Shown here one piece after another: positions 5,373-63,190 of a DNA stretch of 64,000 nucleotides. Source of the DNA: a virus. Its lineage: Duplodnaviria; Caudoviricetes. The position numbers and the translations under genes were made by a program. Numbering within the stretch: position 1 is the stretch's first letter; each line of letters starts with the position of its first letter. The stretch is from the IMG/VR virus record IMGVR_UViG_3300008108_003798; one strand, 5' to 3'. The notes under the pieces were generated by a model. That model made no database searches. It was not told the DNA's origin and saw only the letters and a program-made list of their open reading frames with translations.

Positions 5373-5386
5373 AATAGTATTTATGA

Positions 5387-5790
5387 GGAGATTCTGTTGC
5401 TACGCTCTCCCCGGGCGCCCTGTAGTTATGCTGCTAGAGCAAACTCAGAAGGTGCAAAATTTTCATTTGCAGTTGTCATTTTCTTCGCGGTAACGGCGCT
5501 TAGATCCCGGTGACTCCATCCTGCCTAGTTCGTTGATCGATCCTATGTCAGGCCCATCATAAAAATACTGCGATTAATCCTAATACTAAAACAAATATAA
5601 TACTTACATTACCCCAAAAGATCTGTTCTTGCTCAGTCGGTACCTGTTCATCACAGTACTTTTTCCAATCAAGATCTTCGCTTCTGTCTTTACTCTCATC
5701 GTAATATACATACATCATCAGTCTTCTTATGGTGGACCTGCCGGGTGCCGCCCCCGGGTCTCATCCGTGTTCAGTGAACTTCAACATCAC
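5387..5790 (-). ncRNA. ssrA: circularly permuted two-piece tmRNA (acceptor piece ~5730-5790, coding piece ~5387-5555)
   Basis: T-arm plus acceptor end ACCCGGGGGCGGCACCCGGCAGGTCCACCA lies upstream of the 5' end GGGCCTGACATAGGATCG. They form a 7-bp acceptor stem with G3:U70. Tag frame ANENFAPSEFALAA* at 5426-5470. Confidence 0.93.
5557..5718 (-). CDS. 53-aa single-TM protein encoded inside the tmRNA intervening segment
   Basis: MMYVYYDESKDRSEDLDWKKYCDEQVPTEQEQIFWGNVSIIFVLVLGLIAVFL*; fills 162 of the 174 nt of the intervening segment. Confidence 0.65.
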   Translation of the reverse strand: MMYVYYDESKDRSEDLDWKKYCDEQVPTEQEQIFWGNVSIIFVLVLGLIAVFL

Positions 5791-5794
5791 AAGT

Positions 5795-5802
5795 TATTTA
5801 TA
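5795..5802 (-). promoter_or_regulatory. T4-like late promoter motif TATAAATA upstream of ssrA
   Basis: Exact TATAAATA. Related (A/C)TAAATA motifs precede many minus-strand genes (near 4000, 8960, 10260, 21350, 22580, 39208, 41625, 47350). Confidence 0.6.
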
Positions 5803-5850
5803 TGCTAAAACAGTCAACCAGTCAAGAACTTTTTTGTGTATGCTTGTTCG

Positions 5851-24880: not shown

Positions 24881-25183
24881 ATGTGGGAAATAATTGATAA
24901 AATGTTTGGCGATACATTGTGGATTTACACAAGTATTGCTGGTAGTATTATAGGTGCAATAGTACTTGCATATCTAAGCACTACTAGAATCGGATTGTGG
25001 GGTTATGCACACTTTGATCGTATTGTGGATTATCTAGTAGAACACTGGGGATTAAAATGGTTAGAACAACCAGAAGACGCATGGCGAAAAAAATATCCAA
25101 AAATAACAGCTAAAATTGACGCAATTGAACAGCGTCTAGATCAACTTGAGGGCAAAAAAAATGATAAAGGATCTAAATTTTAA
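24881..25183 (+). CDS. membrane protein
   Basis: N-terminal TM helix; TATAAATA upstream at ~24852. Confidence 0.7.
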   Translation: MWEIIDKMFGDTLWIYTSIAGSIIGAIVLAYLSTTRIGLWGYAHFDRIVDYLVEHWGLKWLEQPEDAWRKKYPKITAKIDAIEQRLDQLEGKKNDKGSKF

Positions 25184-25925
25184 AGAGCGTAGCCTCTTAT
25201 TCGCTAGACTATCTGCCATTGCATATGGCAATCTCAAAGAAGTAAAAAAGCAAGCCAAAGAATTGGGCTTCACTACTGTAGAATTTTACAATAAAGACGG
25301 CGCACAAGCCTACCGTTTCCAAAACAAAAATGATCTAGTTATTGCATGTAGAGGTACAGAACCCACTTGCTTCAACGACATCAAAGCAGATTTAAAAGCA
25401 ATACCTGTTATAGCAGAAACAGTCAGTCGTGTACACAGAGGATTCAAACGAGAAGTTGACGATCTTTGGCCTATGGTTGTCGAAGACCTATCGGCCAAAC
25501 GTGCCGAGCAATCGCTTTGGTTCACTGGACACAGTCTTGGTGCTGCAATGGCAACCATTATGGCCAGCCGTTGTTTGTATTGCGAGGAACTACCTGATCC
25601 TGTAGAACTCTACACATTTGGTTCACCGCGTGTAGGTTGGAAGGGTTATGTTGTTCATCTTGGTGTCGAACATCACCGTTGGGTAAACAACAATGATGTT
25701 GTTACTCGTGTACCATTAAATATCATGGGCTATCGTCATCACGGTACAGAACACTATATGAACGCCTATGGACAGGTACGAAAGAACACAGGATGGCAGC
25801 GTGTAAAGGATCGTTGGCGCGGTATGTGGATGGGTATTAAGAAAGGTAGTATTGATAACTTTTCAGATCACTCAATGTCAAACTATATTGCCAATATAGA
25901 AGCATGGAACAAGGAGCAGGATTAA
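25161..25925 (+). CDS. class 3 lipase (alpha/beta hydrolase)
   Basis: CRGTE, VHRGF, FTGHSLGAA, YTFGSPRVG, NNNDVVTRVP, terminal DH. Confidence 0.9.
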   Translation: MIKDLNFKERSLLFARLSAIAYGNLKEVKKQAKELGFTTVEFYNKDGAQAYRFQNKNDLVIACRGTEPTCFNDIKADLKAIPVIAETVSRVHRGFKREVDDLWPMVVEDLSAKRAEQSLWFTGHSLGAAMATIMASRCLYCEELPDPVELYTFGSPRVGWKGYVVHLGVEHHRWVNNNDVVTRVPLNIMGYRHHGTEHYMNAYGQVRKNTGWQRVKDRWRGMWMGIKKGSIDNFSDHSMSNYIANIEAWNKEQD

Positions 25926-27136: not shown

Positions 27137-27304
27137 ATGTTAACACTAAAACTATTTGACGGTTGGGTTCGTAGCCTTGCTCCACGTCCAGCAGACAAAG
27201 ACCTAGAAACTTGGGCTCGTATAGAATACAAAAAAGATTCTACATTTGCCTATCATCATATGAAAGAATTTGGCGTGGCTCCTAGTATGGGAGCAACAGA
27301 ATGA
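27137..27304 (+). CDS. small hypothetical protein (55 aa)
   Basis: Manual translation MLTLKLFDGWVRSLAPRPADKDLETWARIEYKKD... Confidence 0.6.
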   Translation: MLTLKLFDGWVRSLAPRPADKDLETWARIEYKKDSTFAYHHMKEFGVAPSMGATE

Positions 27305-27459
27305 TCGCAAAATTTAAAACTTGGCTTGTTCGTCATAAAACCTATAAGCAAACTCTAAGAGAGTTAAATTCGCTTAACTATCATCAGTTACGCGATCTTG
27401 GACTTTCGCCAGACATGATTCCAGTTATTGCCAGTGAAGCAGCATATGGAATACGATAA
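27301..27459 (+). CDS. DUF1127 small protein (52 aa)
   Basis: HKTYKQTLRELNSLNYHQLRDLGLSPDMIPVIASEAAYG matches the DUF1127 pattern. Confidence 0.8.
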   Translation: MIAKFKTWLVRHKTYKQTLRELNSLNYHQLRDLGLSPDMIPVIASEAAYGIR

Positions 27460-50542: not shown

Positions 50543-50974
50543 ATAGGTTCAGGGTTCGGCGACCCTCGCGTTCCCTACTCGGTGCGTGTCCGCACACCTT
50601 TCCTGGCCTCACTTACAGTATAACACATCTTGCCCCGAACGCAACCAGAAGTGATCTAACAAAATCAATGACTTACAAAATAAATTTTTTTTCTAAGTCG
50701 TTGAGATTGTTGGAGACTTTGTGCTTGCATATACGTGTAGACAGTGTATAACTAACACATAGAGGGACATACAAGAGGGAACACACAATGACATTCCATC
50801 AACAAGTAGCCAAGTTCGTAGCCAACAACCTCAACCGAGACGCAGACCGCTATGAACAGATCTGGAGCATCAAGAGCGCACTGCTCGCACACGGTTTTCT
50901 CAGCATAAACCGGTTGACAGTGCCCTGCTCATGTGCTATTGTATATGAGTAGGGCAACACAAGAGGGAACGAAG

Positions 50975-51259
50975 ATGGGATACTTTCTTTACGATCGGCA
51001 CGACACTCGCATCGTCAGCAAGGAGTACAAGACTCACGCCGCCGCTCAAGCTCAACTGACTCGGATGGGCAAGGGTCAATTGCAAACAGATCCTAATCAT
51101 CCAATCTACTGTTACGGCGTCGCAGAGAAAGAGTACTACTTCCGTCACATTGAGCGCAAGGTTGTGCGAGTTAACTTGATGAGCGGTGTTGAGTACGAGG
51201 AGAGTGTGAACACGCCGTTGGCTTGCTCGCCTGCTTCGGAAACCTACTGGAGCATGTAG
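50975..51259 (+). CDS. early hypothetical protein
   Basis: Cassette with own promoter; C-terminal NLMSG..ESVNTPLACSPASETYWSM motif. Confidence 0.75.
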   Translation: MGYFLYDRHDTRIVSKEYKTHAAAQAQLTRMGKGQLQTDPNHPIYCYGVAEKEYYFRHIERKVVRVNLMSGVEYEESVNTPLACSPASETYWSM

Positions 51260-51325
51260 AAACTGGTTGACACGGCCAGCGGGTCGTGTTATAACTGTGA
51301 CATAGGGCAACACAACGAGGGCACG

Positions 51326-51517
51326 ATGGAAAGCAAACCGTTCTACGTCAAGCAAGACTTTGTCAAACTCCTGCGTCAGAAGCGCGGCACAGAATACACC
51401 ATTGGCTGGTTGGCTATGGCTTACTCCATGCCGCCCGTGCCCGAAGCACAGGAGATGGAGATCATCCAAAAGGAAATCCCCGTCCTGCAGGCTTTGCCGG
51501 ACTACGACGGCATCTAA
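51326..51517 (+). CDS. early hypothetical protein
   Basis: Promoter and RBS. Confidence 0.7.
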   Translation: MESKPFYVKQDFVKLLRQKRGTEYTIGWLAMAYSMPPVPEAQEMEIIQKEIPVLQALPDYDGI

Positions 51518-51589
51518 GAGGTTGACAGCACAGACTAGACGTGCTATAACTAACACATAGAGCAACACAGTGTAGAGGGAATATACACA

Positions 51590-52000
51590 ATGGGAACTCG
51601 TTCAACTATTGGGATCCAGAACGCAGACGGCACTGTCACTGGCATCTACTGCCACTGGGACGGCTACTTGAGCCACAACGGCCGAATCCTTGCTGAGAAC
51701 TACACGGACGAAGACAAGGTGCGTAAGTTGATCGGTCTTGGCGATATCAGCAGCCTGGGACCGCACATTGGCAATCAGCACGACTTTGACAATGCTCCTA
51801 CGCTGTCGTGCAATGCTTACGGTCGCGATCGTGGCGAGAAGGATGTTGCTGCTCGCACTCTGCACAACTGGCGTCAGTTCTGTGCTGAGAACGGGCAGGA
51901 GTATGACTACCTGTTCACTCCTGGTGCTGGCTGGCAGGTTCGCACCTACAACGGCATCTACGACCTTGCTCGTGCATTGGCAACAGAAACCGTAGAATAA
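51590..52000 (+). CDS. conserved phage early protein
   Basis: MGTRSTIG..IYCHWDGY motif. Confidence 0.8.
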   Translation: MGTRSTIGIQNADGTVTGIYCHWDGYLSHNGRILAENYTDEDKVRKLIGLGDISSLGPHIGNQHDFDNAPTLSCNAYGRDRGEKDVAARTLHNWRQFCAENGQEYDYLFTPGAGWQVRTYNGIYDLARALATETVE

Positions 52001-52063
52001 TGGTTGACACAGCCCTGCTCATGTGCTATTGTATATGAGTAGGGCAACACAAGAGGGACTGAG

Positions 52064-52303
52064 ATGTACAAGATCTATGGCGACTATGGTTACACCAGCG
52101 AATGCCTGCTGCATGAAGCTGACACTCGTAGCGAAGCCCTGCGTTGGGCAGACCGTTACACTGCCGACGACTTTGGCGGCTATGCTGTGATTGATGTTGC
52201 GGTTCACCTCAGCAACGGCGAATACAGCACCATCCAGACCTACCGTGCAGAAGACTACGAGTACGAAGGCGATGACGATTTTGCGCTGATTGATGAATTC
52301 TAA
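52064..52303 (+). CDS. early hypothetical protein
   Basis: Promoter and RBS. Confidence 0.75.
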   Translation: MYKIYGDYGYTSECLLHEADTRSEALRWADRYTADDFGGYAVIDVAVHLSNGEYSTIQTYRAEDYEYEGDDDFALIDEF

Positions 52304-52372
52304 GGTTGACAACCACTGTAGATGTGTTAGTATGTGTGAGTAGAGAGAAACATAGCAGAGAGGGAACACGCT

Positions 52373-52738
52373 ATGACCAACGCTATCGCAATCCGCAACG
52401 AAATGCTGGAACAGGCTGCAACCGTTGCCACGGACTATGTTCGTGAGTGGACTGCTAAGACGGGCGGCAATGCCTACGGTGAACCCATGTATTGCGGCTT
52501 CGCTTGGGTCACTGTATATCCTCAGCACAAAGGCAACACCCGCGACGGCAAAGCTGAGCGCAAGGTGCTGGAAGACATGGGCTTCCGCAAAGACTGGACG
52601 GGCAAGGCTTACGAATACTGGAACCCCAGCAAGTGGGGCGGGCAGAGCATGGATGTGAAGGAAGCAGGTGCTCGTGCTGCCGCTGACGTGCTCCGCAAGT
52701 ATGGATTCACTGCCTACGCTGGTTCGCGAGCAGACTGA
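52373..52738 (+). CDS. conserved phage early protein
   Basis: CGFAWV..QSMDVKEAGARA motif. Confidence 0.8.
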   Translation: MTNAIAIRNEMLEQAATVATDYVREWTAKTGGNAYGEPMYCGFAWVTVYPQHKGNTRDGKAERKVLEDMGFRKDWTGKAYEYWNPSKWGGQSMDVKEAGARAAADVLRKYGFTAYAGSRAD

Positions 52739-52809
52739 GGCAGAAAGAGGTTGACAGGGCGGCAACGCCCTGTTATAACTAACACATAGGGCAACAAGGA
52801 GACGACGAG

Positions 52810-53043
52810 ATGGCACGTTCGATTCGCGAAATTACCAACCGTATCTATGAAGCCGTTGACGAAGGCGTGCTGACTTGGCAGCAGATTGCCGAAGCCGCTC
52901 TGACGTATATGAGCGAAAGCGATGTGGCTGACATGGCTCACAACGAAGAGTTCTTCATGTATGAAGACGAGGAAGAAGACGAGGAAGAGTGGTCGCCCTA
53001 CACCGCAGACTTCAATGACAAAGGTTCCATCCACCACTACTGA
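52810..53043 (+). CDS. acidic early protein
   Basis: ALTYMSESDVADM motif. Confidence 0.75.
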   Translation: MARSIREITNRIYEAVDEGVLTWQQIAEAALTYMSESDVADMAHNEEFFMYEDEEEDEEEWSPYTADFNDKGSIHHY

Positions 53044-53116
53044 TTTTGGTTGACACACCCCTACTTGTGTGCTATAACATACGAGTAGGGCAACACTGCT
53101 AGAGGAGCACAAGCAG

Positions 53117-53512
53117 ATGGCATACGGTGATTTCGTTACTGAGGTTGGTGAAACGGTTGGTATTGTTCGTCAACATCGCCACGGCACGATCTTGATGAGC
53201 CGCTTTGGCACTGTAACCAAAGTCAACGGACACGGACACATCTTTGTCCAGTGCGAAGACCGGGAGTATCGCTTCACCAAGACGGGAGATGCTTACAAAG
53301 ACTCCTACGGTCCTAGTTTGATGCAGGCTGCTAAACTGCGTATGATCCAGGAGAGTGAGACTCGTCGCAAGGAGCAGGTGCGTGTGGCTCGTGCTATGGA
53401 GCAGACGCTCAAGGAGGGATACTCCTATGCGGGTCGCTTCTTCCCCACCGCAGAGCGTATCGCGGCTCTGAAAAATCTTTTGTCAGAGTTGGAAAATCTG
53501 GTTGACCATTGA
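53117..53512 (+). CDS. early hypothetical protein
   Basis: Promoter and RBS. Confidence 0.75.
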   Translation: MAYGDFVTEVGETVGIVRQHRHGTILMSRFGTVTKVNGHGHIFVQCEDREYRFTKTGDAYKDSYGPSLMQAAKLRMIQESETRRKEQVRVARAMEQTLKEGYSYAGRFFPTAERIAALKNLLSELENLVDH

Positions 53513-53558
53513 GTCAACCAGTGCTATAACTAACACATAGGGCAACGAGGAGCACACG

Positions 53559-53744
53559 ATGAACGACGCAAGAGCAGAACAGTGGCAGCGGCTGATCGAC
53601 CTGCTTGACGAAGCAGATGCGATTCAGCAGAAACTGCTGGGCGACGAGGATGCTGCGGCGTGCTATGAGTTCCACAATCAGTTGAACAACATGGCCGACG
53701 AGTTCACTGACTTGGCCAACAAAGATGGCTACGAAATCGGTTGA
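53559..53744 (+). CDS. early hypothetical protein
   Basis: Promoter and RBS. Confidence 0.7.
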   Translation: MNDARAEQWQRLIDLLDEADAIQQKLLGDEDAAACYEFHNQLNNMADEFTDLANKDGYEIG

Positions 53745-53805
53745 CACTGTAGACTAGACGTGCTATAACTAACACATAGGGCAACACAGTAGAGGGAACT
53801 ACAAG

Positions 53806-54075
53806 ATGCTGACACTGGAACACACCGTCCGTTCGTACGCCGGCAAGCCTGGCTGCATGTGCGGCTGCAACGGAGTCTACAACGAAGGCGACCGTGCTCG
53901 CAAGATGGCGCTGACGGCGCTGCTGAAGAACCCAGAGGTTCGCTTGCAGGCTTGGAAGCCCAGCGATGATGCTGGTTGCTTGTTTGTTGAAACTGATACT
54001 CGCAACCGTGTGCTGTACCTCACTGAAGCAGGTGTAGCCGCTGCCCGTGCTATGGGCGTGAAAGAGGAGAAATAA
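53806..54075 (+). CDS. early hypothetical protein with a GCMCGC motif
   Basis: YAGKPGCMCGCNG. Confidence 0.75.
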   Translation: MLTLEHTVRSYAGKPGCMCGCNGVYNEGDRARKMALTALLKNPEVRLQAWKPSDDAGCLFVETDTRNRVLYLTEAGVAAARAMGVKEEK

Positions 54076-54076
54076 G

Positions 54077-54319
54077 ATGTCTGTTATGGAACTGTTGAAG
54101 ACTGCTTTTCCGCGCACCAAGAGCACCAAGCACACTGCGTTCTGCGAACGTATCCCAATGGTGGTTTTTGAACTTGTGGAAGAGCAAGTGCGGACTGAGA
54201 TGCGGGCAAAAGGTTATGTCACTCGCTATCGTGGGCCGCGTGTGAGCAATAACACCTACGGCAATCCTACAACCACTCGGCGCTGCGACGCAACTCATGT
54301 TCTGCTCTATCGCAAATAA
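54077..54319 (+). CDS. early hypothetical protein
   Basis: ORF track. Confidence 0.7.
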   Translation: MSVMELLKTAFPRTKSTKHTAFCERIPMVVFELVEEQVRTEMRAKGYVTRYRGPRVSNNTYGNPTTTRRCDATHVLLYRK

Positions 54320-54380
54320 TGGTTGACACAGGTCACGATTCGCGCTATAACTAACACACAACGAGGCAATGGAGGGTAAC

Positions 54381-54935
54381 ATGCCGAACTGGTGCAATAA
54401 CTCAATTGAAATCGAAGGTCCTGTAGAGAAGATTGCTGCACTGTGGGCTGAGGCTTCCGCTGGCGGCGAAGGCGCGGCTCTGCTCAATGCTCTGTGTCCG
54501 ATGCCAGCAGAACTCTTAGAAGGTGAAGCCTGGTATGGCTGGCGTGTGGCACACTGGGGAACCAAGTGGGACATTGACATGCAAGGTCTCGAGTTTGTTG
54601 ACAACGAACAAGGTCGTGCCTGTATCACAGGTTGGTTTGATTCGGCTTGGAGCCCGCCTGTTGATGCGTTCCAGTCTTATGCTAATGAGAATCCTGATGT
54701 AGACATGGAACTCAAATACTTCGAGCCCGGCATGTCGTTTGTAGGTGTTTGGGATAGTGAAGGTGGTGATGCCTATTGGGATGGCGTTGGCGAGTTGCTG
54801 GACACCACTGAAGAGCAAGACGCTGTTCTGTTTGAACTGTTGGAACACTTTGATGTGGCCGGTTGGTTCGAGACTGACGAAGAAGAGAACCTTGAGATCG
54901 ACCTTGACGGCGGTGTGAGTGCCATCAACGAATAA
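54381..54935 (+). CDS. DUF1281/YubB (Api92-like) ferredoxin-fold protein
   Basis: MPNWCNN..WRVAHWGTKWD..FDSAWSPP..YFEPG. Confidence 0.8.
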   Translation: MPNWCNNSIEIEGPVEKIAALWAEASAGGEGAALLNALCPMPAELLEGEAWYGWRVAHWGTKWDIDMQGLEFVDNEQGRACITGWFDSAWSPPVDAFQSYANENPDVDMELKYFEPGMSFVGVWDSEGGDAYWDGVGELLDTTEEQDAVLFELLEHFDVAGWFETDEEENLEIDLDGGVSAINE

Positions 54936-55004
54936 TAATGGTTGACACACCCCTACTCGTGTGCTATAACATACGAGTAGGGCAACGCTGCTGAGGAGCA
55001 CACG

Positions 55005-55280
55005 ATGGCACGTAAGACGATCGAAGTTGGCAAGATACTGCGGATGGCTAACACCTTCCTTGCTGCAACTAACACCCGCGACGACGAGCGTGAAGGCGTG
55101 TGTGCGCTGCTGGAGGCTGTGCTGTTTGAGTCGGGCAACTATGAAGGCTTCCGCTATTTGGAAGGCAGTGACTATCCGGAAGAAGTTCCAAGCGGTAGCC
55201 GCCGCTTCTACTTCGCAAGCAAGACTGTGCTTGCAGATGAAGCAGAGGAACTTCGCAACGTCAACCGCATCCGTGTGTGA
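55005..55280 (+). CDS. early hypothetical protein
   Basis: LEAVLFESGNYEGFRYL motif. Confidence 0.75.
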   Translation: MARKTIEVGKILRMANTFLAATNTRDDEREGVCALLEAVLFESGNYEGFRYLEGSDYPEEVPSGSRRFYFASKTVLADEAEELRNVNRIRV

Positions 55281-55290
55281 GGAGAACCGC

Positions 55291-55455
55291 ATGAACCCTT
55301 TGGCTTTTTTTGCAATGGTAGGGTTTGTACTGTTGCTGATCGTCAGCACCGCAGCCTACACCTTTTCCAAATGCGGCTGGTATGCCTTTGCACTGGGCAA
55401 AGGTGCTGGGATGGCTGCCGTCACTGGCATGTGCGATAAACTCAACGAGGAATAA
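55291..55455 (+). CDS. small membrane/exported protein
   Basis: RBS GGAG; hydrophobic N-terminus. Confidence 0.6.
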   Translation: MNPLAFFAMVGFVLLLIVSTAAYTFSKCGWYAFALGKGAGMAAVTGMCDKLNEE

Positions 55456-55456
55456 C

Positions 55457-55576
55457 ATGGACTGGACTATTGAAGAATACCTAGCGTTCGAACAGCACCT
55501 GTTGGAACAAGCAGAAAAAGATGCAGACGATTATGAGATTCCGGTTGACGAACCTGTCTACTGGTGCTATAACTAA
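55457..55576 (+). CDS. small acidic protein whose 3' end contains the next promoter
   Basis: ...PVDEPVYWCYN* is encoded by TTGACG-N17-TATAAC. Confidence 0.55.
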   Translation: MDWTIEEYLAFEQHLLEQAEKDADDYEIPVDEPVYWCYN

Positions 55577-55603
55577 CACATAGGGCAACAAGAGGACCAC
55601 AAG

Positions 55604-55885
55604 ATGAACAACTTTGCAACCGCCATCACTGCAATCCACAAGATGGACAACGACGAACTGAACGCTGTGGTTCGTGCAATCAAAGACCGCCGCACCTATC
55701 TTGCTCGTCAGCAGGCTGTGACCTTTGCTGTGGGCGACCGTGTGTCGTTCGCTGCTCGTGGTATGCAGGTGCTGGGTACCGTTACCAAGATCAACATCAA
55801 GACCGTCCAAGTTCGTCAGAGCAACACTGCTACGGTTTGGAAAGTCCACGCAAGCCTGCTCCGGCCAGTGAAAGAAATGGCTTGA
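55604..55885 (+). CDS. early protein with an SH3/KOW-like C-terminus
   Basis: FAVGDRVSF..GTVTKINIKTV..WKVHASLL. Confidence 0.75.
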   Translation: MNNFATAITAIHKMDNDELNAVVRAIKDRRTYLARQQAVTFAVGDRVSFAARGMQVLGTVTKINIKTVQVRQSNTATVWKVHASLLRPVKEMA

Positions 55886-55938
55886 CAGGTTGCTGTATAC
55901 GTGCTATAACTAACACATAGAAACACAAGAGGGACACG

Positions 55939-56127
55939 ATGAAAGATTACATGACACTGATCGCAGTCATTGACCGGTTGGGCGATATTGCAGAACTTCC
56001 GTCAGCTAAGATCCGCGAAGCACTGGATCAATACATTGCTCAGTTGGAAACAGAGGTTGCTTATGTTGAACGAGAGATGGAACGTGAACACCAGATCGAT
56101 GTGATGTTCGAGAACGTGCCAGTATAA
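55939..56127 (+). CDS. early hypothetical protein
   Basis: Promoter and RBS. Confidence 0.7.
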   Translation: MKDYMTLIAVIDRLGDIAELPSAKIREALDQYIAQLETEVAYVEREMEREHQIDVMFENVPV

Positions 56128-56136
56128 ATAGACAAC

Positions 56137-56212
56137 GCCCGGTTAGCCCAAAGGTAGAGGCAACAGACTTAAAATCTGTCAAGCGTCGGTTCGACCCCGA
56201 CACTGGGTACCA
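56137..56212 (+). tRNA. tRNA-Leu(UAA) with a short variable arm
   Basis: Cloverleaf; anticodon loop CTTAAAA; GGTTCGA; encoded CCA; TATAAATA at 56123-56130. Confidence 0.8.
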
Positions 56213-56218
56213 AACATT

Positions 56219-56295
56219 GGGGGATTAGCTCAATTGGTTAGAGCGTCGGACTCATAATCCGCAGGTTATCGGTTCAAGTCCGGTATCCCCTACCA
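56219..56295 (+). tRNA. tRNA with a CAU anticodon (elongator Met or Ile2)
   Basis: Anticodon loop CTCATAA; GGTTCAAGTCC; CCA. Confidence 0.9.
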
Positions 56296-56297
56296 TA

Positions 56298-56374
<77 letters not shown>

Positions 56375-56392
56375 ACTTTACAAGAGAGCAAG

Positions 56393-56800
56393 ATGAGTTA
56401 CACTGAAAAGACTATGGTCGCTGGTGAAGCAGAGATCATCTACACCACCTTCTCCTACTGGAACTTGGTGTTTGGGTTTGGCATTGGCCTTGCCCTTGCT
56501 CCGATCACCCTTGGTTTGAGTATGCTGTTCGCACTTGCGGCTGTGCTGGATCACTACTTCACAGAGTATTCCATTACCACAAGGCGTGTGTTGACCAAGC
56601 GTGGTGTGATCCGGCGGCGGGTGAGTGAAGTGAACATCCGCAAGGTCGAAGGTGTTTCGGTGCGTCAAACGGTGCTGGGACGCATCTTGGGTTATGGTGA
56701 TGTGATCGTGCGTGGCACTGGCACAGAGCATTTGACCATCCGGATGGTGCAGGCCCCGCTGTTAGTGAAAGTTTCTATCCAGAATCAGGTTGACAAGTAA
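56393..56800 (+). CDS. bacterial PH-domain (bPH_2) membrane protein
   Basis: YSITTRRVLTKRGVI..KVEGVSVRQTVLGRILGYGDV. Confidence 0.85.
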   Translation: MSYTEKTMVAGEAEIIYTTFSYWNLVFGFGIGLALAPITLGLSMLFALAAVLDHYFTEYSITTRRVLTKRGVIRRRVSEVNIRKVEGVSVRQTVLGRILGYGDVIVRGTGTEHLTIRMVQAPLLVKVSIQNQVDK

Positions 56801-56826
56801 GTGTGTCTGTCGTATAGTATACAAGT

Positions 56827-57847
56827 AGGCAAAGAGGGAAGCAACATGTCTAACGTTAAATTTCTTGATGGTACTTTTAAACTGCGCGGCAAAGATGTAG
56901 ATATGTCGGGCATGGTTCTGCCCATGTTGGAAGGTTTTAAGGTTGGTGTTCGTGGCGGCTACGTGACTGTGGATGGTAAGGCAGTCCCTGGGTTTCCTGA
57001 TCGTGCGATTAAGGTGTATGTTGCAGGTGCAGGCTCGGTTGAAGAGACCGAAGACTCCGTGGCCGCCACTGCCAGAGAAGAATCCGACGAAGAAGTGATT
57101 GAACGACTGCGTGAACGCTTTGATATGCTGTCGGACATGACCAGAGCAGTCAAGCGCGGCGAAGTACGTGCTATGATCGTAAGTGGTCCTCCGGGCGTGG
57201 GCAAGAGCCACGGTGTTGAAGAAGTTCTTGATCGCTACAAGATGATGGAGACTCTTGGTGCTGCCAAGACTCACGAAGTTGTCAAAGGTGCTATGAGTGC
57301 GTTGGGTCTCTATGCCAAACTGTTCAAGATGAGTGCTCCAGGCAACATTGTTGTGTTTGACGACTGTGACAGTGTGTTCTCAGACGAACTGAGCCTGAAC
57401 ATCCTCAAGGCTGCACTGGACTCAAAGAAGACTCGTACTATCCACTGGAACACTGATAGCCGACTGTTGCGTCAAGAAGGTATTCCAGGTTCGTTCAAGT
57501 TTGAAGGTAGTGCTATCTTCATCACCAACTTGAAGTTCGACAAGGTCAGAGGTAAACTGCGTGAACACCTTGCAGCATTGGAATCACGCTGCCACTATAT
57601 CGACTTGACCATTGACACTGATCGTGAGAAGATGCTGCGTATCCAACAGATCGTTCGTGACGGCATGTTGGATGAATATGAGTTTGACGAAGAAATGCAA
57701 CAGGAGATTGTTGACTTCGTTGATGTGAATAAGAAGCGACTGCGCGAACTTTCCCTCAGGTCCGTGCTCAAGGTCGCCGACTTGGCAAAGGCCTTTCCTA
57801 CCAAATGGGAAGCCGTTGCCGAAAGCACTGTGATGCGTCGAGACTGA
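56827..57847 (+). CDS. AAA+ ATPase
   Basis: Walker A SGPPGVGKS; Walker B VVFDDCD; IFITN; ALESR. Confidence 0.85.
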
Positions 57848-57862
57848 CTCCGCATCACAGTA

Positions 57863-58002
57863 TGCTACACGGACCGCCCTCATCCGTGTAGCAGCCCAGG
57901 TAGACAGTGTGCCCTCGCTGGTCTACCGACTACGGAGAAGCGTCGCCCTCACGCCCTCTCCACAGTGCCCTAGCAGGATGCCCTCCCTGCTAGGGCTTTT
58001 TT
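57863..58002 (+). ncRNA. putative four-hairpin sRNA with GCCCUC loops, ending in an intrinsic terminator
   Basis: Stems TGCTACACGGA/TCCGTGTAGCA, GGTAGAC/GTCTACC, GGAGA..GCGT/ACGC..TCTCC, GCCCTAGCAGG/CCTGCTAGGGC+T6; every loop contains GCCCTC. Confidence 0.65.
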
Positions 58003-58086
58003 ATTGCAATCGCAGTCTTAGAGGTTGACAGGGCGGAACTGCTGTGCTATACATAACAAGTAAGCAACGCATAGAGGGAATACACA

Positions 58087-58386
58087 ATGCGTAAAGTTAC
58101 TGTCCTCCGCAAGTTCCAAACTGTTAAAGCAATGCGCGACTGTATTGCTGCTTATACTGCAAATGTTTTTGCAGACGAACTGCGCGAAGCTGCTGTTGCA
58201 ATGTATGCAAATGACATTGCGAGAGCTGTTGTTGCGCTTAACGAGTTTATTAGAACGAGTGACGCTGTTGCATTGCACAAGCGTATTATGTATTGGGACA
58301 CAGACGTGCGGGAAGCATTTGTTAGCGTGTTGCACTACATAGAGCAAGAGCAAATGGTGCCTGCTACGGAGTTTGCTGTGCTGTAA
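58087..58386 (+). CDS. early hypothetical protein (largely TC/CC-free)
   Basis: Promoter and RBS. Confidence 0.7.
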   Translation: MRKVTVLRKFQTVKAMRDCIAAYTANVFADELREAAVAMYANDIARAVVALNEFIRTSDAVALHKRIMYWDTDVREAFVSVLHYIEQEQMVPATEFAVL

Positions 58387-58453
58387 CAACGAGGAGTTGA
58401 CAGCACAGTCTATCCGTGCTATACAATACAAATAGGGCAACAAGGAGCACACC

Positions 58454-58654
58454 ATGTCTAATGCACGTCTTGCAGAAATTGCTGCAAAGCACAGCGCAGC
58501 AATCCACGTCTACAAAACCACAGGAGAAATTGACAGCACGTCAGATCTCTACTTTGAAGTATATGAATATTTCGCAAACGAAATGGACTCTAAAGTCCGC
58601 CGCAGTGCTGCACGCCAGTTTGACTACATAACAGAAAAAATCCGCAGCCTGTAA
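58454..58654 (+). CDS. early hypothetical protein
   Basis: Promoter and RBS. Confidence 0.7.
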   Translation: MSNARLAEIAAKHSAAIHVYKTTGEIDSTSDLYFEVYEYFANEMDSKVRRSAARQFDYITEKIRSL

Positions 58655-58721
58655 GAATGTGGTTGACACAGCCCTGTAGATATGCTATAACGTATGAGTA
58701 GGGCAACAAAGGACAACACCA

Positions 58722-58901
58722 ATGATCAAGATTACTATTCCAGCAGTGTCGGTTCGCGAAGCAGTCGACATCCGCGACAGAATTCAGGGCGTGATCCTTG
58801 TGAAGGGTGAGACGGCTGTGATTGGCGATGGCGGTGTTGTGATCACCACAGACAATCCTGTGCGTGTGTGCCTTGAACTGCAAGGCGATGGCTTCATCTA
58901 A
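58722..58901 (+). CDS. early hypothetical protein (59 aa)
   Basis: Manual translation MIKITIPAVSVREAVDIRDRIQG... Confidence 0.65.
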   Translation: MIKITIPAVSVREAVDIRDRIQGVILVKGETAVIGDGGVVITTDNPVRVCLELQGDGFI

Positions 58902-59056
58902 CCCCGGCCAGGCGGGCTAAGTCATTGAAAACAATGGCAAATTTTTCTCGCACAAAAATGCTAAGTCGTTGTTTTTAAACGAATCATTTTGCTTGCAAAC
59001 TGTGCTGCATAGTGTATAACTGTACTTGTAAGCAACACAGCAGAGGGAAACACGCT

Positions 59057-59263
59057 ATGCAAAACACAGTTAAACTTGTGGACGTTGAGTATAACTATAA
59101 AAGCGAGCTTTGCGCTACGCTTACAAACAGCGTTAAAGCTGTGCGCTGCGAGGACGTGCTGTATTTGGACTTTGTAAGCTATGCTGCAATGTGTGCAGTA
59201 TACGAGGAGTGGTGCGAGCTTGCGGACGCGGGCGAAGAGGGTTATTTTTACGTAGCAGCGTAA
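59057..59263 (+). CDS. early hypothetical protein in the YC-free island
   Basis: GAGGGA RBS; MQNTVKLV... Confidence 0.7.
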   Translation: MQNTVKLVDVEYNYKSELCATLTNSVKAVRCEDVLYLDFVSYAAMCAVYEEWCELADAGEEGYFYVAA

Positions 59264-59361
59264 AAAAACTTGCAGCACACAGCACTTTTTAGTTGACAAG
59301 TGCTGTGTGCTGTGCTATACATAACTTGTAAGCAACACAGCACAGCAGAGGGAAACACGCT

Positions 59362-59649
59362 ATGCAAAACACAGTAGCAAATACAGCAAATACTAATTAC
59401 GTTTTTGTAATGCTTGATGACGCTACAAACGCAATTGTACTGCGTATTAATAAAACTGTTGACGTTTTTTGTAATAGTGCAAACGACATAATTGCTGCAT
59501 TTAAACAATATAATATTACGGACTGCGACACTATTATGTGCAGCAGTGACGTGGATTTTGCTACGGAGTTTGACTATGCGTACGACAGTGCAGTACACGA
59601 CATGCTTGACGAAGCTTTTGACGCACTAAATTTTAAACAATACGTTTAA
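59362..59649 (+). CDS. early hypothetical protein in the YC-free island
   Basis: GAGGGA RBS; MQNTVANT... Confidence 0.7.
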   Translation: MQNTVANTANTNYVFVMLDDATNAIVLRINKTVDVFCNSANDIIAAFKQYNITDCDTIMCSSDVDFATEFDYAYDSAVHDMLDEAFDALNFKQYV

Positions 59650-59739
59650 AAAAACAGCAGCACACAGCACTTTTTACTTGACGAGTGCTGTGTGCTGTGC
59701 TATAACTTACACACGGGCAACACACGAGAGGGACTGCAC

Positions 59740-59931
59740 ATGACACGCGAAGAACTGTTTGCTAAAATTGCTGCAATTGCTGCTGACGCATACGACAGCA
59801 CGGATGCTGACGAAGTGCAAAGCTGGGATGCATACGAAGCAGCGAAACAGATTGTTATTGCAATGCAGACGGTTGGCTACGACATAACATATATGTTGGA
59901 GCAAATTGAGGAAGACGCTGACGAAGCGTAA
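59740..59931 (+). CDS. early hypothetical protein in the YC-free island
   Basis: GAGGGA RBS; MTREELFA... Confidence 0.7.
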   Translation: MTREELFAKIAAIAADAYDSTDADEVQSWDAYEAAKQIVIAMQTVGYDITYMLEQIEEDADEA

Positions 59932-60027
59932 CACAAAAAAAACTTGCAGCGCACAGCACTTTTTACTTGACGAGTGCTGTGTGCTGTGCTATACATAACT
60001 TGTAAGCAACGCAAGAGGGAACACGCT

Positions 60028-60315
60028 ATGCACACAGTAATTGCAGAATTTTTGCAGTGTTTTGCAGCATATATGCAGCATGTAGCCGCGCTAGCGGACG
60101 ACACGGAACTCGAGCCCGCGGATGCGGAAGACGCTGTTAAAATTGCACAGCAACTTCCTTTGCTGTATGCAGTTGTTTACAGTCCCCGTGCAGCACAATG
60201 CGCTGCGCTTGATGCGCTAGAAGTCGACTGCATTAACATGCTCGACACCAACGTGCGCGATTTCTTTGCTAACCTGTATACTGTTAACGCACTGTTCCGC
60301 AGCAACGAGTTGTAA
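60028..60315 (+). CDS. early hypothetical protein
   Basis: GAGGGA RBS; MHTVIAEF... Confidence 0.7.
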   Translation: MHTVIAEFLQCFAAYMQHVAALADDTELEPADAEDAVKIAQQLPLLYAVVYSPRAAQCAALDALEVDCINMLDTNVRDFFANLYTVNALFRSNEL

Positions 60316-60402
60316 TAAAAACTTGCAGCACACAGCACTTTTTACTTGACGAGTGCTGTGTGCTGTGCTATACATATTGCATAGGGCAAACAGGAGGGCA
60401 AG

Positions 60403-60543
60403 ATGAAGATTCAAATTAAAGCCGAAGACATCCAGCGCCGCGATCCGGTTGCTCGTGCATTGGCAGACAGTCGGTTCCAGCCTCGCACTGTGCGTGACAG
60501 AACCAAATACACCCGCAAACAGAAACACCGCAAAGCCTACTAA
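60403..60543 (+). CDS. small basic ArfA-like protein (46 aa)
   Basis: DPVARALADSRFQPRTVRDRTKYTRKQKH resembles the ArfA core. Confidence 0.55.
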   Translation: MKIQIKAEDIQRRDPVARALADSRFQPRTVRDRTKYTRKQKHRKAY

Positions 60544-60567
60544 GGCCCCGCTGTTAAGGAGATCGAC

Positions 60568-60744
60568 ATGACTTTCTACCATTACTTCAAGACCGTGTGC
60601 CTCTTGCTTGCTAGCCTTGTGGCGTTCATTGCAGTGATTAGCCCCGAGACTGTGGGCAAATGGCAGGCCCGCAAAGACGTTGCCTACGACAGTATCTGGA
60701 TCGAATGGATCAGTGACTGTGATTGCACAGAGCCACTGGAGTAA
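60568..60744 (+). CDS. small membrane protein (58 aa)
   Basis: AGGAG RBS; hydrophobic N-terminus. Confidence 0.55.
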   Translation: MTFYHYFKTVCLLLASLVAFIAVISPETVGKWQARKDVAYDSIWIEWISDCDCTEPLE

Positions 60745-60833
60745 GCGACTTTCCGCTTACTGCGGATAAAACCCGTTGACTCACCTGTAGATCATGCTAT
60801 AAGTATAATACGAACGACAAAAAGGAGAAACCA

Positions 60834-61433
60834 ATGCGGATGATTCACATCCTCGGCGGCGTCGCTTCTTCAGCCGTGATCGTTGCAATGGCAGTGGTTT
60901 ACTTGACGGCAGATGAGGCAAAAGCAGCCGTTGACCCCGTAGAAATCGTATATGTTGACCGAGTAGTAGAACGAGTGGTGGAGCGTGTGGTGCATGTGCC
61001 CATGCCCACCAGACCTGGCCAAGATCCTGAGGCTATCTTTGCTGATGCCGGCACAGAAGACCTATACTGTCTAGCACAGAACATCTACTTTGAAAGCAGA
61101 GGCGAGAGCAAGGTAGGCCAAGAGTTTGTAGGTTGGGTTACACTGAACAGAGTTCAGAACTCAGACTTCCCCAGCGAGATCTGCAGGGTAGTGTGGCAGG
61201 ACAGCCAGTTCTCATGGACACATGACGGCAAGAGCGACCAACCACGAGATGCTGCGGCTTGGGCAACAGCACAGACCATTGCCCTTGAAGTGGTGCAGGC
61301 CTATGGTGTAGAACGTGATCCAACCGAAGGCGCAACCTACTTCCATGCTACCTCAGTCCGACCTAGTTGGGCCAAGAAGTTCGAACGTGTGGTACAGATC
61401 GATAACCATATCTTCTACGTAGATAGAGGTTGA
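60834..61433 (+). CDS. SleB-like cell wall hydrolase (Hydrolase_2)
   Basis: CLAQNIYFESRGES..VTLNRV..QFSW..TEGATYFH..IDNHIFY. Confidence 0.92.
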   Translation: MRMIHILGGVASSAVIVAMAVVYLTADEAKAAVDPVEIVYVDRVVERVVERVVHVPMPTRPGQDPEAIFADAGTEDLYCLAQNIYFESRGESKVGQEFVGWVTLNRVQNSDFPSEICRVVWQDSQFSWTHDGKSDQPRDAAAWATAQTIALEVVQAYGVERDPTEGATYFHATSVRPSWAKKFERVVQIDNHIFYVDRG

Positions 61434-61786
61434 CACACTGGTTGCCCTGTGCTATACATAACGTATAGGGCAACACAGGAGACACCAGATGTGGCAAGTA
61501 AGAACACAGTTCTCCAAACCTAACGCAGACAATCCTACTGGGCCTTTGGAGTGGAACGCGGTGTTGGTGGCGACAGAAGCAGAAGCAGAAGCATGGTGGC
61601 ACACTCGGACCACTAGTTAGAGTCCTGTTCAAATAACGGTTGACAACCCAGTTGCCCTGTGCTATACATAACACATAGGGCAACACAACAACGAGGCACA
61701 AGATGAAACTTCCGATCCTGCTTTCCGCAATTATGATTGCTGTCGCTGCACATCACTACTTCACTTTCGCCTAAGGGGGCTGCGCT

Positions 61787-61975
61787 ATGCTGAACTCACA
61801 AGAACTCACAGAGCGTGGTTGGAACATCTATCGTTCCAACAACTGGATTGGTCGTCATCGTGAAACTGGTCGGAAGATCACTGCTGGCACACACCTCACC
61901 CTGCTGCACCTGCTGAACTACGAAGAGTGGCAGAACTCGCAAACTTGGAGCACCGTGCTGGAACAAACTGGTTGA
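61787..61975 (+). CDS. early hypothetical protein
   Basis: ORF track. Confidence 0.6.
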   Translation: MLNSQELTERGWNIYRSNNWIGRHRETGRKITAGTHLTLLHLLNYEEWQNSQTWSTVLEQTG

Positions 61976-62034
61976 CAGCACACCAAACAGATGTTATAGT
62001 TAACGCATAGGGCAACACACTAGAGGGCAAACAC

Positions 62035-62436
62035 ATGTATACCTTTGATGAACAGATTGTTAGCGACCTCCACAAGGACGCTCGCGGCTATCGTCCGGAT
62101 GAGTACTTCTGGGAAGAGTGGAGCCAGTGCGGCGACCTTACTCGTCAATCCATGTGGGACAACCTGCTGGAGGAACTGGCAGCGGAGACAGCACGGCAGC
62201 GGGACGCTTATGCTCGTGCAGAGATCCACTTCCACCAGCGTGTCCAAGGCACTATGTTGGCAGGTGCCGAAGACGAACTCACTGCCATCCGTTGGATCCT
62301 TGAGGCCGAACAGTTCACTAACTCGGACTTGGCCTACGGTTCGGACTATGTGGCTTGGCACTTTGGACTGCCCTACAAAGGCGAATTTGATCAGCAGATC
62401 CAGACTGTGATCACGGCTATGGAGTCTGAGAACTAA
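62035..62436 (+). CDS. early hypothetical protein
   Basis: SDLHKDARGYRP motif common in phage early proteins. Confidence 0.75.
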   Translation: MYTFDEQIVSDLHKDARGYRPDEYFWEEWSQCGDLTRQSMWDNLLEELAAETARQRDAYARAEIHFHQRVQGTMLAGAEDELTAIRWILEAEQFTNSDLAYGSDYVAWHFGLPYKGEFDQQIQTVITAMESEN

Positions 62437-62505
62437 GTGGTTGACACAGTGTAACGGCCGTGCTATACATACGACATAGGGCAACACACTAGAGGGACTA
62501 CACCA

Positions 62506-62868
62506 ATGATGAAGTATGCAATCCTGTTCTCCATCCTTGCTTTTCCAGTGTTTGCACACAGCGGCGGTCTCGATCGCAACGGCTGCCACAACGACAACAT
62601 CAATGGTGGATACCACTGCCATCGTGAATCATCCAACAGCGAAGTTGCTCACAACGACAACAACGACCTTGAACGGCTGTTGATGGGTATCGTGGCTGTT
62701 GGTGTTATTTCTGCTGCGATTGCTCCTCAATCAGAACCTGTGTACCACCAGCCCGCAGTCCGTGCATGTGTGGTTGAAGAAGTAGAGTATACTCCGACTC
62801 GCGTTTACGTGGCAGTGATCGATACTTGTGCTGGACACATCCTAGATCAATATTCCTACAATCGCTGA
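62506..62868 (+). CDS. secreted YHYH-domain protein
   Basis: Signal peptide, then HSGGLDRNGCHND..GGYHCH. Confidence 0.8.
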   Translation: MMKYAILFSILAFPVFAHSGGLDRNGCHNDNINGGYHCHRESSNSEVAHNDNNDLERLLMGIVAVGVISAAIAPQSEPVYHQPAVRACVVEEVEYTPTRVYVAVIDTCAGHILDQYSYNR

Positions 62869-62938
62869 ACTAAGTGGTTGACAACCCTGCTCAAGCCTGC
62901 TATACATAACACATAGGGCAACACAAGAGGAACACACC

Positions 62939-63190
62939 ATGAACCTTAACGCACAGAACATCCAGAAGATTCAAGCCATGCTGCGTAACGTTGCAGAAGT
63001 AGACCCCAACGACATCATCTCCAACCGTGCAAGCCAACTGGCTGTGGACTTGGAACTGGTGCGTGTTCCGTTCCTATACGAAAGCCTTACAGAAGCAGAA
63101 CGCATGTTGGTACAGTATGCTATCAGCAAGCGTGACGTGTATGTGTTGCGCCCAGACGCAAGACATGCTGTGAACCTCCAAGCAGCCTAA
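62939..63190 (+). CDS. early hypothetical protein
   Basis: Promoter and RBS. Confidence 0.7.
   Translation: MNLNAQNIQKIQAMLRNVAEVDPNDIISNRASQLAVDLELVRVPFLYESLTEAERMLVQYAISKRDVYVLRPDARHAVNLQAA

Follow-up and report, generated by a model that had tools for sequence, protein, structure and literature searches.

Directly behind an AAA ATPase gene, a 64,000-nucleotide (nt) stretch of phage DNA (IMG/VR record IMGVR_UViG_3300008108_003798, Caudoviricetes; the whole stretch is called the window below) encodes a run of RNA hairpins with unrelated stems and a common loop motif, GCCCUC, which raises the question of what such an array might recognize. We found that the (U)GCCCU(C) of the loops is the Watson-Crick complement of a tag, (G)AGGGC(A), on the early mRNAs of the same phage, and that in relatives the two partners change together. 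Since the loop motif both complements a Shine-Dalgarno-positioned motif and changes with it, RNA-RNA pairing at the ribosome-binding site (RBS) offers the simplest account, and it is very probable that early protein synthesis is controlled through base-pairing of loops with tags.

The hairpin array and its conservation in relatives

Hairpins in the window and in relatives were called from minimum free energy (MFE) folds. Four strong hairpins, H1 to H4, lie in 57863-58002 on the + strand, each showing the GCCCUC motif in its loop. Together with H0, which precedes them, they make an array of five consecutive hairpins over ~180 nt that ends at the H4 terminator (Table 1), and their stems have no common sequence. 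The region 57820-58010 folds at -90.4 kcal/mol, compared to -55.7 ± 4.5 kcal/mol for dinucleotide shuffles (z = -7.74), and none of 200 shuffles was as good. Of the five GCCCUC motifs in the array, four are unpaired in the ensemble with a probability of 0.78-1.0 per base, the exception being the paired final C in the H2 motif (unpaired probability 0.01); the fifth, at 57953, is in the H3 stem. GCCCTC shows no overall enrichment in the window (17 sites vs. 14.9 expected), and 5 of the 17 sites fall inside the 110 nt between 57876 and 57985.

The last hairpin pairs GCCCUAGCAGG with CCUGCUAGGGC, has 8 G-C among its 11 pairs and is followed by TTTTTT. It was recovered independently by a terminator scan, and its G+C-rich stem and U tract are those of a Rho-independent terminator. 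Folding differs only modestly between the strands, with the + strand more stable in 15 of 21 loci; gene orientation and the U tail are therefore the basis for the assignment to the + strand.

How is the array made? A promoter scan found no promoter-like site between the ATPase stop codon and the array, nor anywhere in 56818-58025. The array begins within the ATPase open reading frame (ORF), where H0 lies, and its terminator at 57967-58002 is shared with the ATPase mRNA. It thus has the two features of an RNA derived from a 3' untranslated region (3'UTR), namely 1) no promoter of its own and 2) the terminator of the upstream mRNA. The true start of the ATPase is most likely the ATG at 56846, downstream of the promoter and of the RBS AGAGGGAA, and relatives have the same promoter arrangement upstream of their ATPase. 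The protein matches Pfam AAA and AAA_16, and its tblastn matches include the nrdC.10 genes of T4-like phages and PA5oct gp126 (48% identity). A first-pass annotation of the window had described consecutive stem-loops with unrelated stems and a common GCCCTC loop motif, the final one a U-tailed terminator, and had placed their origin in the 3'UTR. The fold, the terminator scan and the position of the array agree with all of this; its count of four hairpins is right for those after the stop codon and overlooked H0, which lies over it.

Table 1. Coordinates of the array, its transcript and its proposed targets in the window
Feature	Position	Strand	Details
sigma-70-type promoter of the ATPase/array transcript	56790-56818	+	TTGACA-17-TATAGT; promoter scan, 11/12 matches
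AAA ATPase gene, T4 NrdC.10-like	56846-57847	+	RBS AGAGGGAA; the array is the 3'UTR of its mRNA
H0	57827-57861	+	14 pairs, over the ATPase stop codon; 5' arm is coding sequence; MFE fold
H1	57863-57893	+	11 pairs; loop CCGCCCUCA at 57874-57882; loop unpaired probability 0.93-1.0
H2	57899-57927	+	11 pairs; UGCCCU loop inside UGUGCCCUCG (57908-57917)
H3	57929-57966	+	12 pairs and internal loops; loop CGCCCUC (57944-57950)
H3 stem	57953-57958	+	second GCCCUC, within the stem
H4 terminator hairpin	57967-57996, through 58002 with tail	+	11 pairs; loop AUGCCCUC at 57978-57985; then U6
Next early promoter	58025-58053	+	3' boundary of the array
Proposed target set	50914-63190	+	~25 promoter-leader-gene cassettes; 5'-proximal UAGGGCAAC and GAGGG(C)/GGAG RBS; repeat families D4, D7, D10

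We then asked how far the array is conserved. Two scans of IMG/VR with the ATPase as query gave 117 loci, and our census contains 40 array loci, 24 with GCCCUC loops and 16 with UCGCUCC loops. In the former, which include the window, 2-5 hairpins come after the stop codon of an orthologous ATPase (amino-acid identity 56-73%); their stems are unrelated and GCCCUC stands in the loops. The recurrent apical types are GGA-CCGCCCUCA-UCC, AG-UGUGCCCUCG-CU, GCGU-AGCCCUC-ACGC and CAGGA-UG(U)GCCCUC. The first, that of H1, is found again in loci L001, L006, L014, L034 and L036 on unrelated lower stems; the H3 type, GCGU-(A/C)GCCCUC-ACGC(UCUGC), is present in 13 distinct relatives (14 loci); and H4 has an identical counterpart in L010 and near-identical stems in L003, L005 and L018.

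The stems themselves covary. In a gap-free alignment of H2-type hairpins (n = 17), A-U, G-C and U-A replace one another at the three pairs above the conserved apex, where 0-2 of 17 cells are unpaired. The covariation score of 0.447 compares to 0.211 for shuffles, of which none out of 500 scored that high, and slid partners reached no more than 0.226. For H0, covariation was read by direct arm matching: a Thr codon of the 5' arm varies synonymously at its third base, and the 3' arm tracks it as T-A, C-G, G-C and A-T. This hairpin is present in clade A and clade B relatives, and in several of them its loop also contains GCCCUC. Covariation in relatives, which the first-pass annotation had proposed as a check, is therefore found, and the loops, on whose conservation it had staked its claim, are kept in the 24 loci.

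Each genome has one array, as seen in G001 (155 kb), G002 (257 kb), G003 (330 kb, 93% complete) and G008 (372 kb, complete with terminal repeats), and reversed-pattern controls gave none. A search of cultured phage genomes at the DNA level with the ATPase and array returned just an 83-nt match in an Aeromonas phage and no close cultured relative. Two cultured homologues of the ATPase lack the array: a 44-nt gap follows PA5oct gp126, and a plain terminator and then a small ORF follow the homologue in Cronobacter S13. A collection-wide scan for three spaced GCCCTC motifs was unspecific, since the matches listed were mostly G+C-rich coding DNA and none of 80 loci taken from them had a real hairpin array.

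Two side observations concern the hairpins. Lone extra hairpins with a UGUGCCCUC(G/A) loop occur 1.6-3.9 kb upstream of the array in three relatives (L003:1721-1758, L005:2342-2379 and L018:127-164), one of them a U-tailed terminator, so the loop motif does not belong exclusively to the ATPase 3'UTR. In addition, the base of the H4 stem is conserved as GCCCUAG... paired with ...CUAGGGC (window 57967-57996; L003:4112-4149, L005:4091-4128, L010:4121-4152 and L018:4172-4209); UAGGGC, the motif of the leaders, thus recurs in its 3' arm and the loop-like GCCCUA in its 5' arm, so that the stem base copies within one molecule the loop-leader duplex proposed below.

Matched loops and ribosome-binding tags

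In the window, early genes are laid out as cassettes with the plan TTGACA, N17, TATAAC or TATACA, 7 nt, TAGGGCAAC, 3-12 nt, RBS (GAGGG, GGAG or GAGGA), 6-9 nt, ATG. Among the 25 cassettes with an ORF, 16 have an exact TAGGGCAAC, 13 have GAGGG as RBS (the others GGAG or GAGGA) and 3 have GAGGGC. The common leader noted in the first-pass annotation is thus real, and its figure of ~30 early transcripts was too high. Allowing one mismatch, TAGGGCAAC occurs 36 times vs. 13 expected. Judging by promoter geometry and the spacing to the -10 element, UAGGGCAAC would stand at the extreme 5' end of each early transcript. The tag is split in this phage between this 5'-terminal UAGGGCAAC and the GAGGG RBS; in most relatives, it is the RBS itself, usually GAGGGCAA.

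The distribution of these motifs follows the early genes. On the + strand, AGGGCA and GAGGG are concentrated at 48-64 kb, and the late genes, in a large minus-strand block of structural and other late functions, use AGGAG, GGAG or AAGGA as RBS and have neither the UAGGGCAAC leader nor the tag. The predicted loop-leader duplex has a mean energy of -14.5 kcal/mol for early leaders, compared to -8.35 kcal/mol for 36 late-gene translation-initiation regions (Mann-Whitney p = 8e-9) and -9.7 kcal/mol for shuffled leaders. The contact made by each loop is short, either AGGGCA with UGCCCU (6 base pairs [bp]; H2 and H4) or GAGGG with CCCUC (5 bp). Phage transfer RNAs (tRNAs) and transfer-messenger RNA (tmRNA) were rejected as partners of the loops: the tRNAs have no AGGGC or GAGGG, and the tmRNA has one AGGGC.

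Two further features of the tags are worth recording. Inside the mainly minus-strand late block, two + strand genes at 24881-25925 have perfect GAGGGCAA RBSs; one encodes a 100-amino-acid protein without family and the other a class-3 lipase (Pfam Lipase_3, 72 bits), and both would belong to the same proposed regulon, distant from the early cluster. The 17-nt spacer that separates -35 from -10 contains (G/C)CCCT in 8 of the 25 early promoters and is there complementary to the leader's (U)AGGGC(AAC) (window 50914-62905; e.g., 50920-50936, 53056-53072 and 61436-61452). In read-through transcripts from the upstream gene, the spacer would hide the leader tag in a hairpin through the same pairing as is proposed for the array loops in trans, an arrangement resembling the promoter-early stem-loops of T4-type phages.

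The key evidence for loop-tag pairing comes from comparing the relatives. In the 24 GCCCUC-array loci, GAGGGC is at RBS position, i.e., 3-11 nt before an ORF-opening ATG, at 87 of 108 + strand sites, and GGAGCG at 1 of 13. A sister clade, comprising the other 16 loci, has the same ATPase-plus-array layout with (A/U)UCGCUCC loops (AUUCGCUCC). There, 59 of 64 sites of GGAGCG, the exact complement of the loop, are at RBS position, and none of 9 GAGGGC sites is. No array locus examined combines one kind of array with the tags of the other kind. By sequence, the array therefore has what is expected of an anti-Shine-Dalgarno base-pairing regulator, an accessible complementary motif and a partner that co-varies with it. 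The complementarity to leader and RBS, already claimed in the first-pass annotation, is no coincidence: it is kept in 24 relatives and swapped for a different matched pair in 16 loci.

The ATPase tree places the two pairs apart. GCCCUC/GAGGGC forms one clade (25 rows), whose own sister group (9 rows) has neither array nor tag; UCGCUCC/GGAGCG forms a separate clade (17 rows, support 99/98); and deeper outgroups are without array and tag. A third loop/tag state was sought among 80 further ATPase loci and none was found, the other clades having neither array nor tag, or the tag alone. Tags also cluster near the array. In the 257-kb genome G002, 12 of 15 GAGGGC-N3-10-ATG sites are in the 8.5 kb ending at the array, and in the complete 372-kb genome G008, the array lies in a 28-kb terminal, early arm where 18 of 25 GGAGCG-type sites are found on the same strand as the array.

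These patterns bear on two explanations that involve no RNA-RNA pairing. The hairpins might be plain 3'-end stabilizers or terminators, their loop motif a relic of duplication and the RBS match due to chance, as might be supposed from H4, which is a canonical intrinsic terminator, and from the protection that stacked hairpins give to 3' ends. We disfavour this explanation as very unlikely, because the stems have wholly diverged around invariant loops at ATPase identities down to ~55-60%, two different motifs each fit the local tag, and arrays are absent where the tag is absent. Even less credible is a duplex-DNA motif, where GAGGGC and GCCCTC would be a single asymmetric site for a DNA-binding or -modifying protein, seen in opposite orientations. 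The two are indeed the identical site on double-stranded DNA, but their orientation is strict, with GAGGGC in the coding strand at Shine-Dalgarno spacing and GCCCTC in the loops of covarying hairpins, and orientation, spacing and covarying stems are meaningful in single-stranded RNA only.

Proposed repression of early translation and its alternatives

What would pairing between loops and tags achieve? We consider it probable that the array is a cuckoo-like, 3'UTR-borne anti-RBS RNA that represses early translation as a group. Host RNA polymerase would transcribe the ATPase and the array from the sigma-70-type promoter at 56790. The loops would then form 5-7 bp, G+C-rich loop-to-single-strand contacts with the tags and occlude the Shine-Dalgarno region. 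Whether cleaved off or not, the array would be far more stable than the mRNA and would accumulate during infection, progressively shutting down translation of the entire early set, ATPase mRNA included. Two features lead us to propose that it outlives the mRNAs and silences the early class: a host-type promoter drives it together with an early gene, and its stems are long and rich in G+C. From these sequences, we infer pairing in vivo, repression, action in trans and a processed small RNA. More tentatively, this giant-phage lineage might possess a private translation address, i.e., a lineage-specific Shine-Dalgarno extension (GAGGGCAA; GGAGCG elsewhere) read by a single-copy multi-loop RNA that acts as an intrinsic timer switching off the early class, with key and lock re-coded together. 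On this reading, with four loops and two sites per mRNA, the array could even cross-link early mRNAs into inactive assemblies.

Several points weigh against group repression by the array. Only two loop/tag pairs are independent, each from a single clade, and the co-variation thus amounts to two events. A third clade (C) in the ATPase tree (crown of 32 rows, 31 tag-positive) uses GGAGCG RBSs, has a small ORF directly behind the ATPase, and no array was seen there. A search for a UCGCUCC array elsewhere in the records of this clade, which are fragments of 13.8-87 kb (4-25% complete), gave one chance pair in coding-like DNA only. The third clade may have its array elsewhere in the genome, or the tag may have its own reader, the array being an optional added layer. 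Exact GAGGGC sites are few in the array-bearing loci L004, L008/L019 and L011. In the window, most RBSs are GAGGG or GGAG, which leaves just 5-6 bp per loop. The loops also keep bases beyond the complement (CCGCCCUCA and UGUGCCCUCG), which a protein could read. Finally, the weak hint of expression that we have may reflect DNA carry-over. It comes from a riverine metatranscriptome, where a 231-nt contig has 213 nt identical to 57767-57979 (this is an assembled contig, whose ends are not readable), and from a second riverine run with a short identical contig over the gene after the array. The metatranscriptome contigs are of low depth and come from these two riverine runs; one wastewater run, of doubtful "RNA" status, covers the window elsewhere.

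As a side observation on the third clade (L020-L031 and L047-L067), the ATPase is followed there by a Cys-rich ORF of 71 amino acids (L023:3782-3997), with a weak match to the C-terminal portion of the cell-cycle regulator GcrA (Pfam GcrA, E = 5e-5, 24.1 bits; cut-off 26.9).

The constant linkage of the array to the ATPase raises the possibility of action in cis only, the loops pairing solely with the Shine-Dalgarno sequence of their own mRNA and autoregulating the ATPase. There is a precedent in the icaR mRNA, where a C-rich 3'UTR motif pairs with the Shine-Dalgarno region and blocks initiation (PMC3868564). As in icaR, the ATPase mRNA carries both partners, a C-rich 3'UTR motif and the RBS. 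The array accompanies the ATPase in both clades while neighbouring small genes differ, a promoter of its own precedes the ATPase, and GAGGGC is part of the ATPase RBS in 14 of 22 clade A loci (the window has AGAGGGAA). We nevertheless regard purely cis action as unlikely. Three to five loops are superfluous for one site, and dozens of other early genes share the tag and cluster around the array. icaR has one motif acting on its own mRNA, whereas here 4-5 loops face ~25 tagged mRNAs. Cis and trans action are not exclusive.

Complementarity and co-variation do not fix the sign of the effect. The same evidence would suit pairing with a positive or protective outcome, in which the array shields early Shine-Dalgarno sequences from a nuclease (of host defence or RegB-like) or holds early mRNAs in reserve. 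T4 RegB is an endoribonuclease that cuts GGAG and inactivates early mRNAs via their Shine-Dalgarno motif, and RegB of T4-like phages attacks early Shine-Dalgarno sequences (PMC9409239). We think a protective role improbable, since an occluded Shine-Dalgarno normally blocks 30S binding. Group repression by the array would itself be akin to RegB action, as class-wide inactivation of early mRNAs in a related phage type (the ATPase being NrdC.10-like), the difference being that RegB is a protein that cleaves, while the array is an RNA that would mask an extended Shine-Dalgarno by pairing.

A further alternative is that the loops are binding sites for an RNA-binding protein (a phage DUF1127/CcaF1-like protein, Hfq, ProQ or another); the array would sponge this protein or be matured by it. 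Loop size and flanks are conserved beyond the 6-mer, in the recurrent apical types, as a protein-binding site might be. The phage does encode a DUF1127 protein, confirmed at 27301-27459 on the + strand (Pfam DUF1127, 38.6 bits, E = 9e-10), and DUF1127 proteins such as CcaF1 bind cuckoo/CcsR RNAs and help mature them in Rhodobacter (PMC8034643). A protein target leaves unexplained why the loop is the exact complement of the RBS tag in two clades with different motifs, and 30 kb separate the array from the DUF1127 gene, which is on a different transcript; we hold this alternative to be improbable as well. The sponge for the phage DUF1127 protein that the first-pass annotation had offered as an alternative accordingly finds no support, for the gene is real but belongs to a distant operon and the joint change of loop and RBS is not accounted for. 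A link between this protein and the array is only a lead.

Known systems, host and neighbouring genes

Is the array a member of a known RNA family? The cuckoo/CcsR RNAs of Alphaproteobacteria (RSs0680a-d, alpha-r14) consist of 2-4 hairpins side by side, whose stems vary greatly and whose loops all carry a conserved, C-rich, anti-Shine-Dalgarno-like motif, and those of R. sphaeroides are made from an mRNA 3'UTR (PMC4615179, PMC8034643). The array shares this modular build, with four adjacent hairpins and H0 in the window and 2-5 in relatives, variable stems with compensatory changes, one C-rich motif in the loops, and the 3'UTR position; the cuckoo-like architecture proposed in the first-pass annotation is thus there. 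The loop motif differs. Cuckoo loops are CCUCCUCCC, whereas those of the window are CCGCCCUCA, UGCCCU, CGCCCUC and AUGCCCUC, and those of the UCGCUCC arrays are AUUCGCUCC. Unlike its bacterial counterparts, the array is phage-borne, present once per genome and situated behind an AAA ATPase. An adjacent, co-transcribed DUF1127 ORF, the mark of the CIN1 subgroup, is absent, the DUF1127 gene of the phage being the distant one described above. Moreover, what the array complements is not the general Shine-Dalgarno sequence but a tag private to the early genes of its own phage. At gathering and E-value thresholds, Rfam gives no family for the array, and the best sub-threshold match on 57700-58150 is NsiR1, with 21 bits vs. 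a cut-off of 39. Because loop motif, DUF1127 neighbourhood and model match all fail, the array is not a cuckoo/CcsR member; its architecture is cuckoo-like, and it would work like that family.

A second parallel is Staphylococcus aureus RNAIII, along with other UCCC-loop small RNAs; as PMC4615179 summarizes, they carry a UCCC motif in several hairpin loops that binds the RBSs of many mRNAs and represses their translation. The array likewise has several loops with one C-rich motif. RNAIII differs in having its own promoter and coding for a peptide, that account gives it no private tag, and organism and motif are different. C-rich loops that pair with the Shine-Dalgarno are an established repressive design (cuckoo, RNAIII and icaR), which we count in favour of the repression reading. 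A search of the published literature on the motifs, and on phage RNAs masking their own early RBSs, found nothing relevant.

Virulent phages time their gene expression by proteins, such as sigma-factor appropriators, RegA, RegB and their own polymerases, and the phage small RNAs known so far mostly act on host genes or lysogeny. If our reading is true, the array would be a class-wide RNA switch for a phage's own early genes and a programmable key-and-lock pair. It would 1) be an RNA counterpart of RegB action on T4 early mRNAs, 2) represent a phage branch of the multi-hairpin anti-Shine-Dalgarno design known from alphaproteobacteria and staphylococci, 3) explain the odd early-gene RBS of abundant uncultured giant phages of lakes and seas, 4) supply a sequence rule to predict early genes in metagenomic phage genomes, and 5) offer two naturally orthogonal repressor-RNA/RBS pairs for synthetic biology.

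The window belongs to an uncultured freshwater giant phage. Across 12 studies, 17 runs of lake-water, freshwater or "fungus metagenome" samples contain DNA near-identical to 56400-59400, and the phage is therefore widespread in freshwater samples. Its host is likely alphaproteobacterial because it carries a permuted tmRNA of the alphaproteobacterial type (5382-5829, - strand; Rfam alpha_tmRNA, 95.6 bits). Three tRNAs (Leu-UAA, Met-CAU and Arg-UCU) are encoded at 56137-56374 on the + strand, just upstream of the ATPase operon. The early gene preceding the ATPase, at 56393-56800 (+), encodes a bacterial PH-domain protein (bPH_2, 53 bits), and a 46-amino-acid ORF at 60403-60543 (+), with the RBS GGAGGGCAAG, matches Pfam DUF7230 (34 bits).

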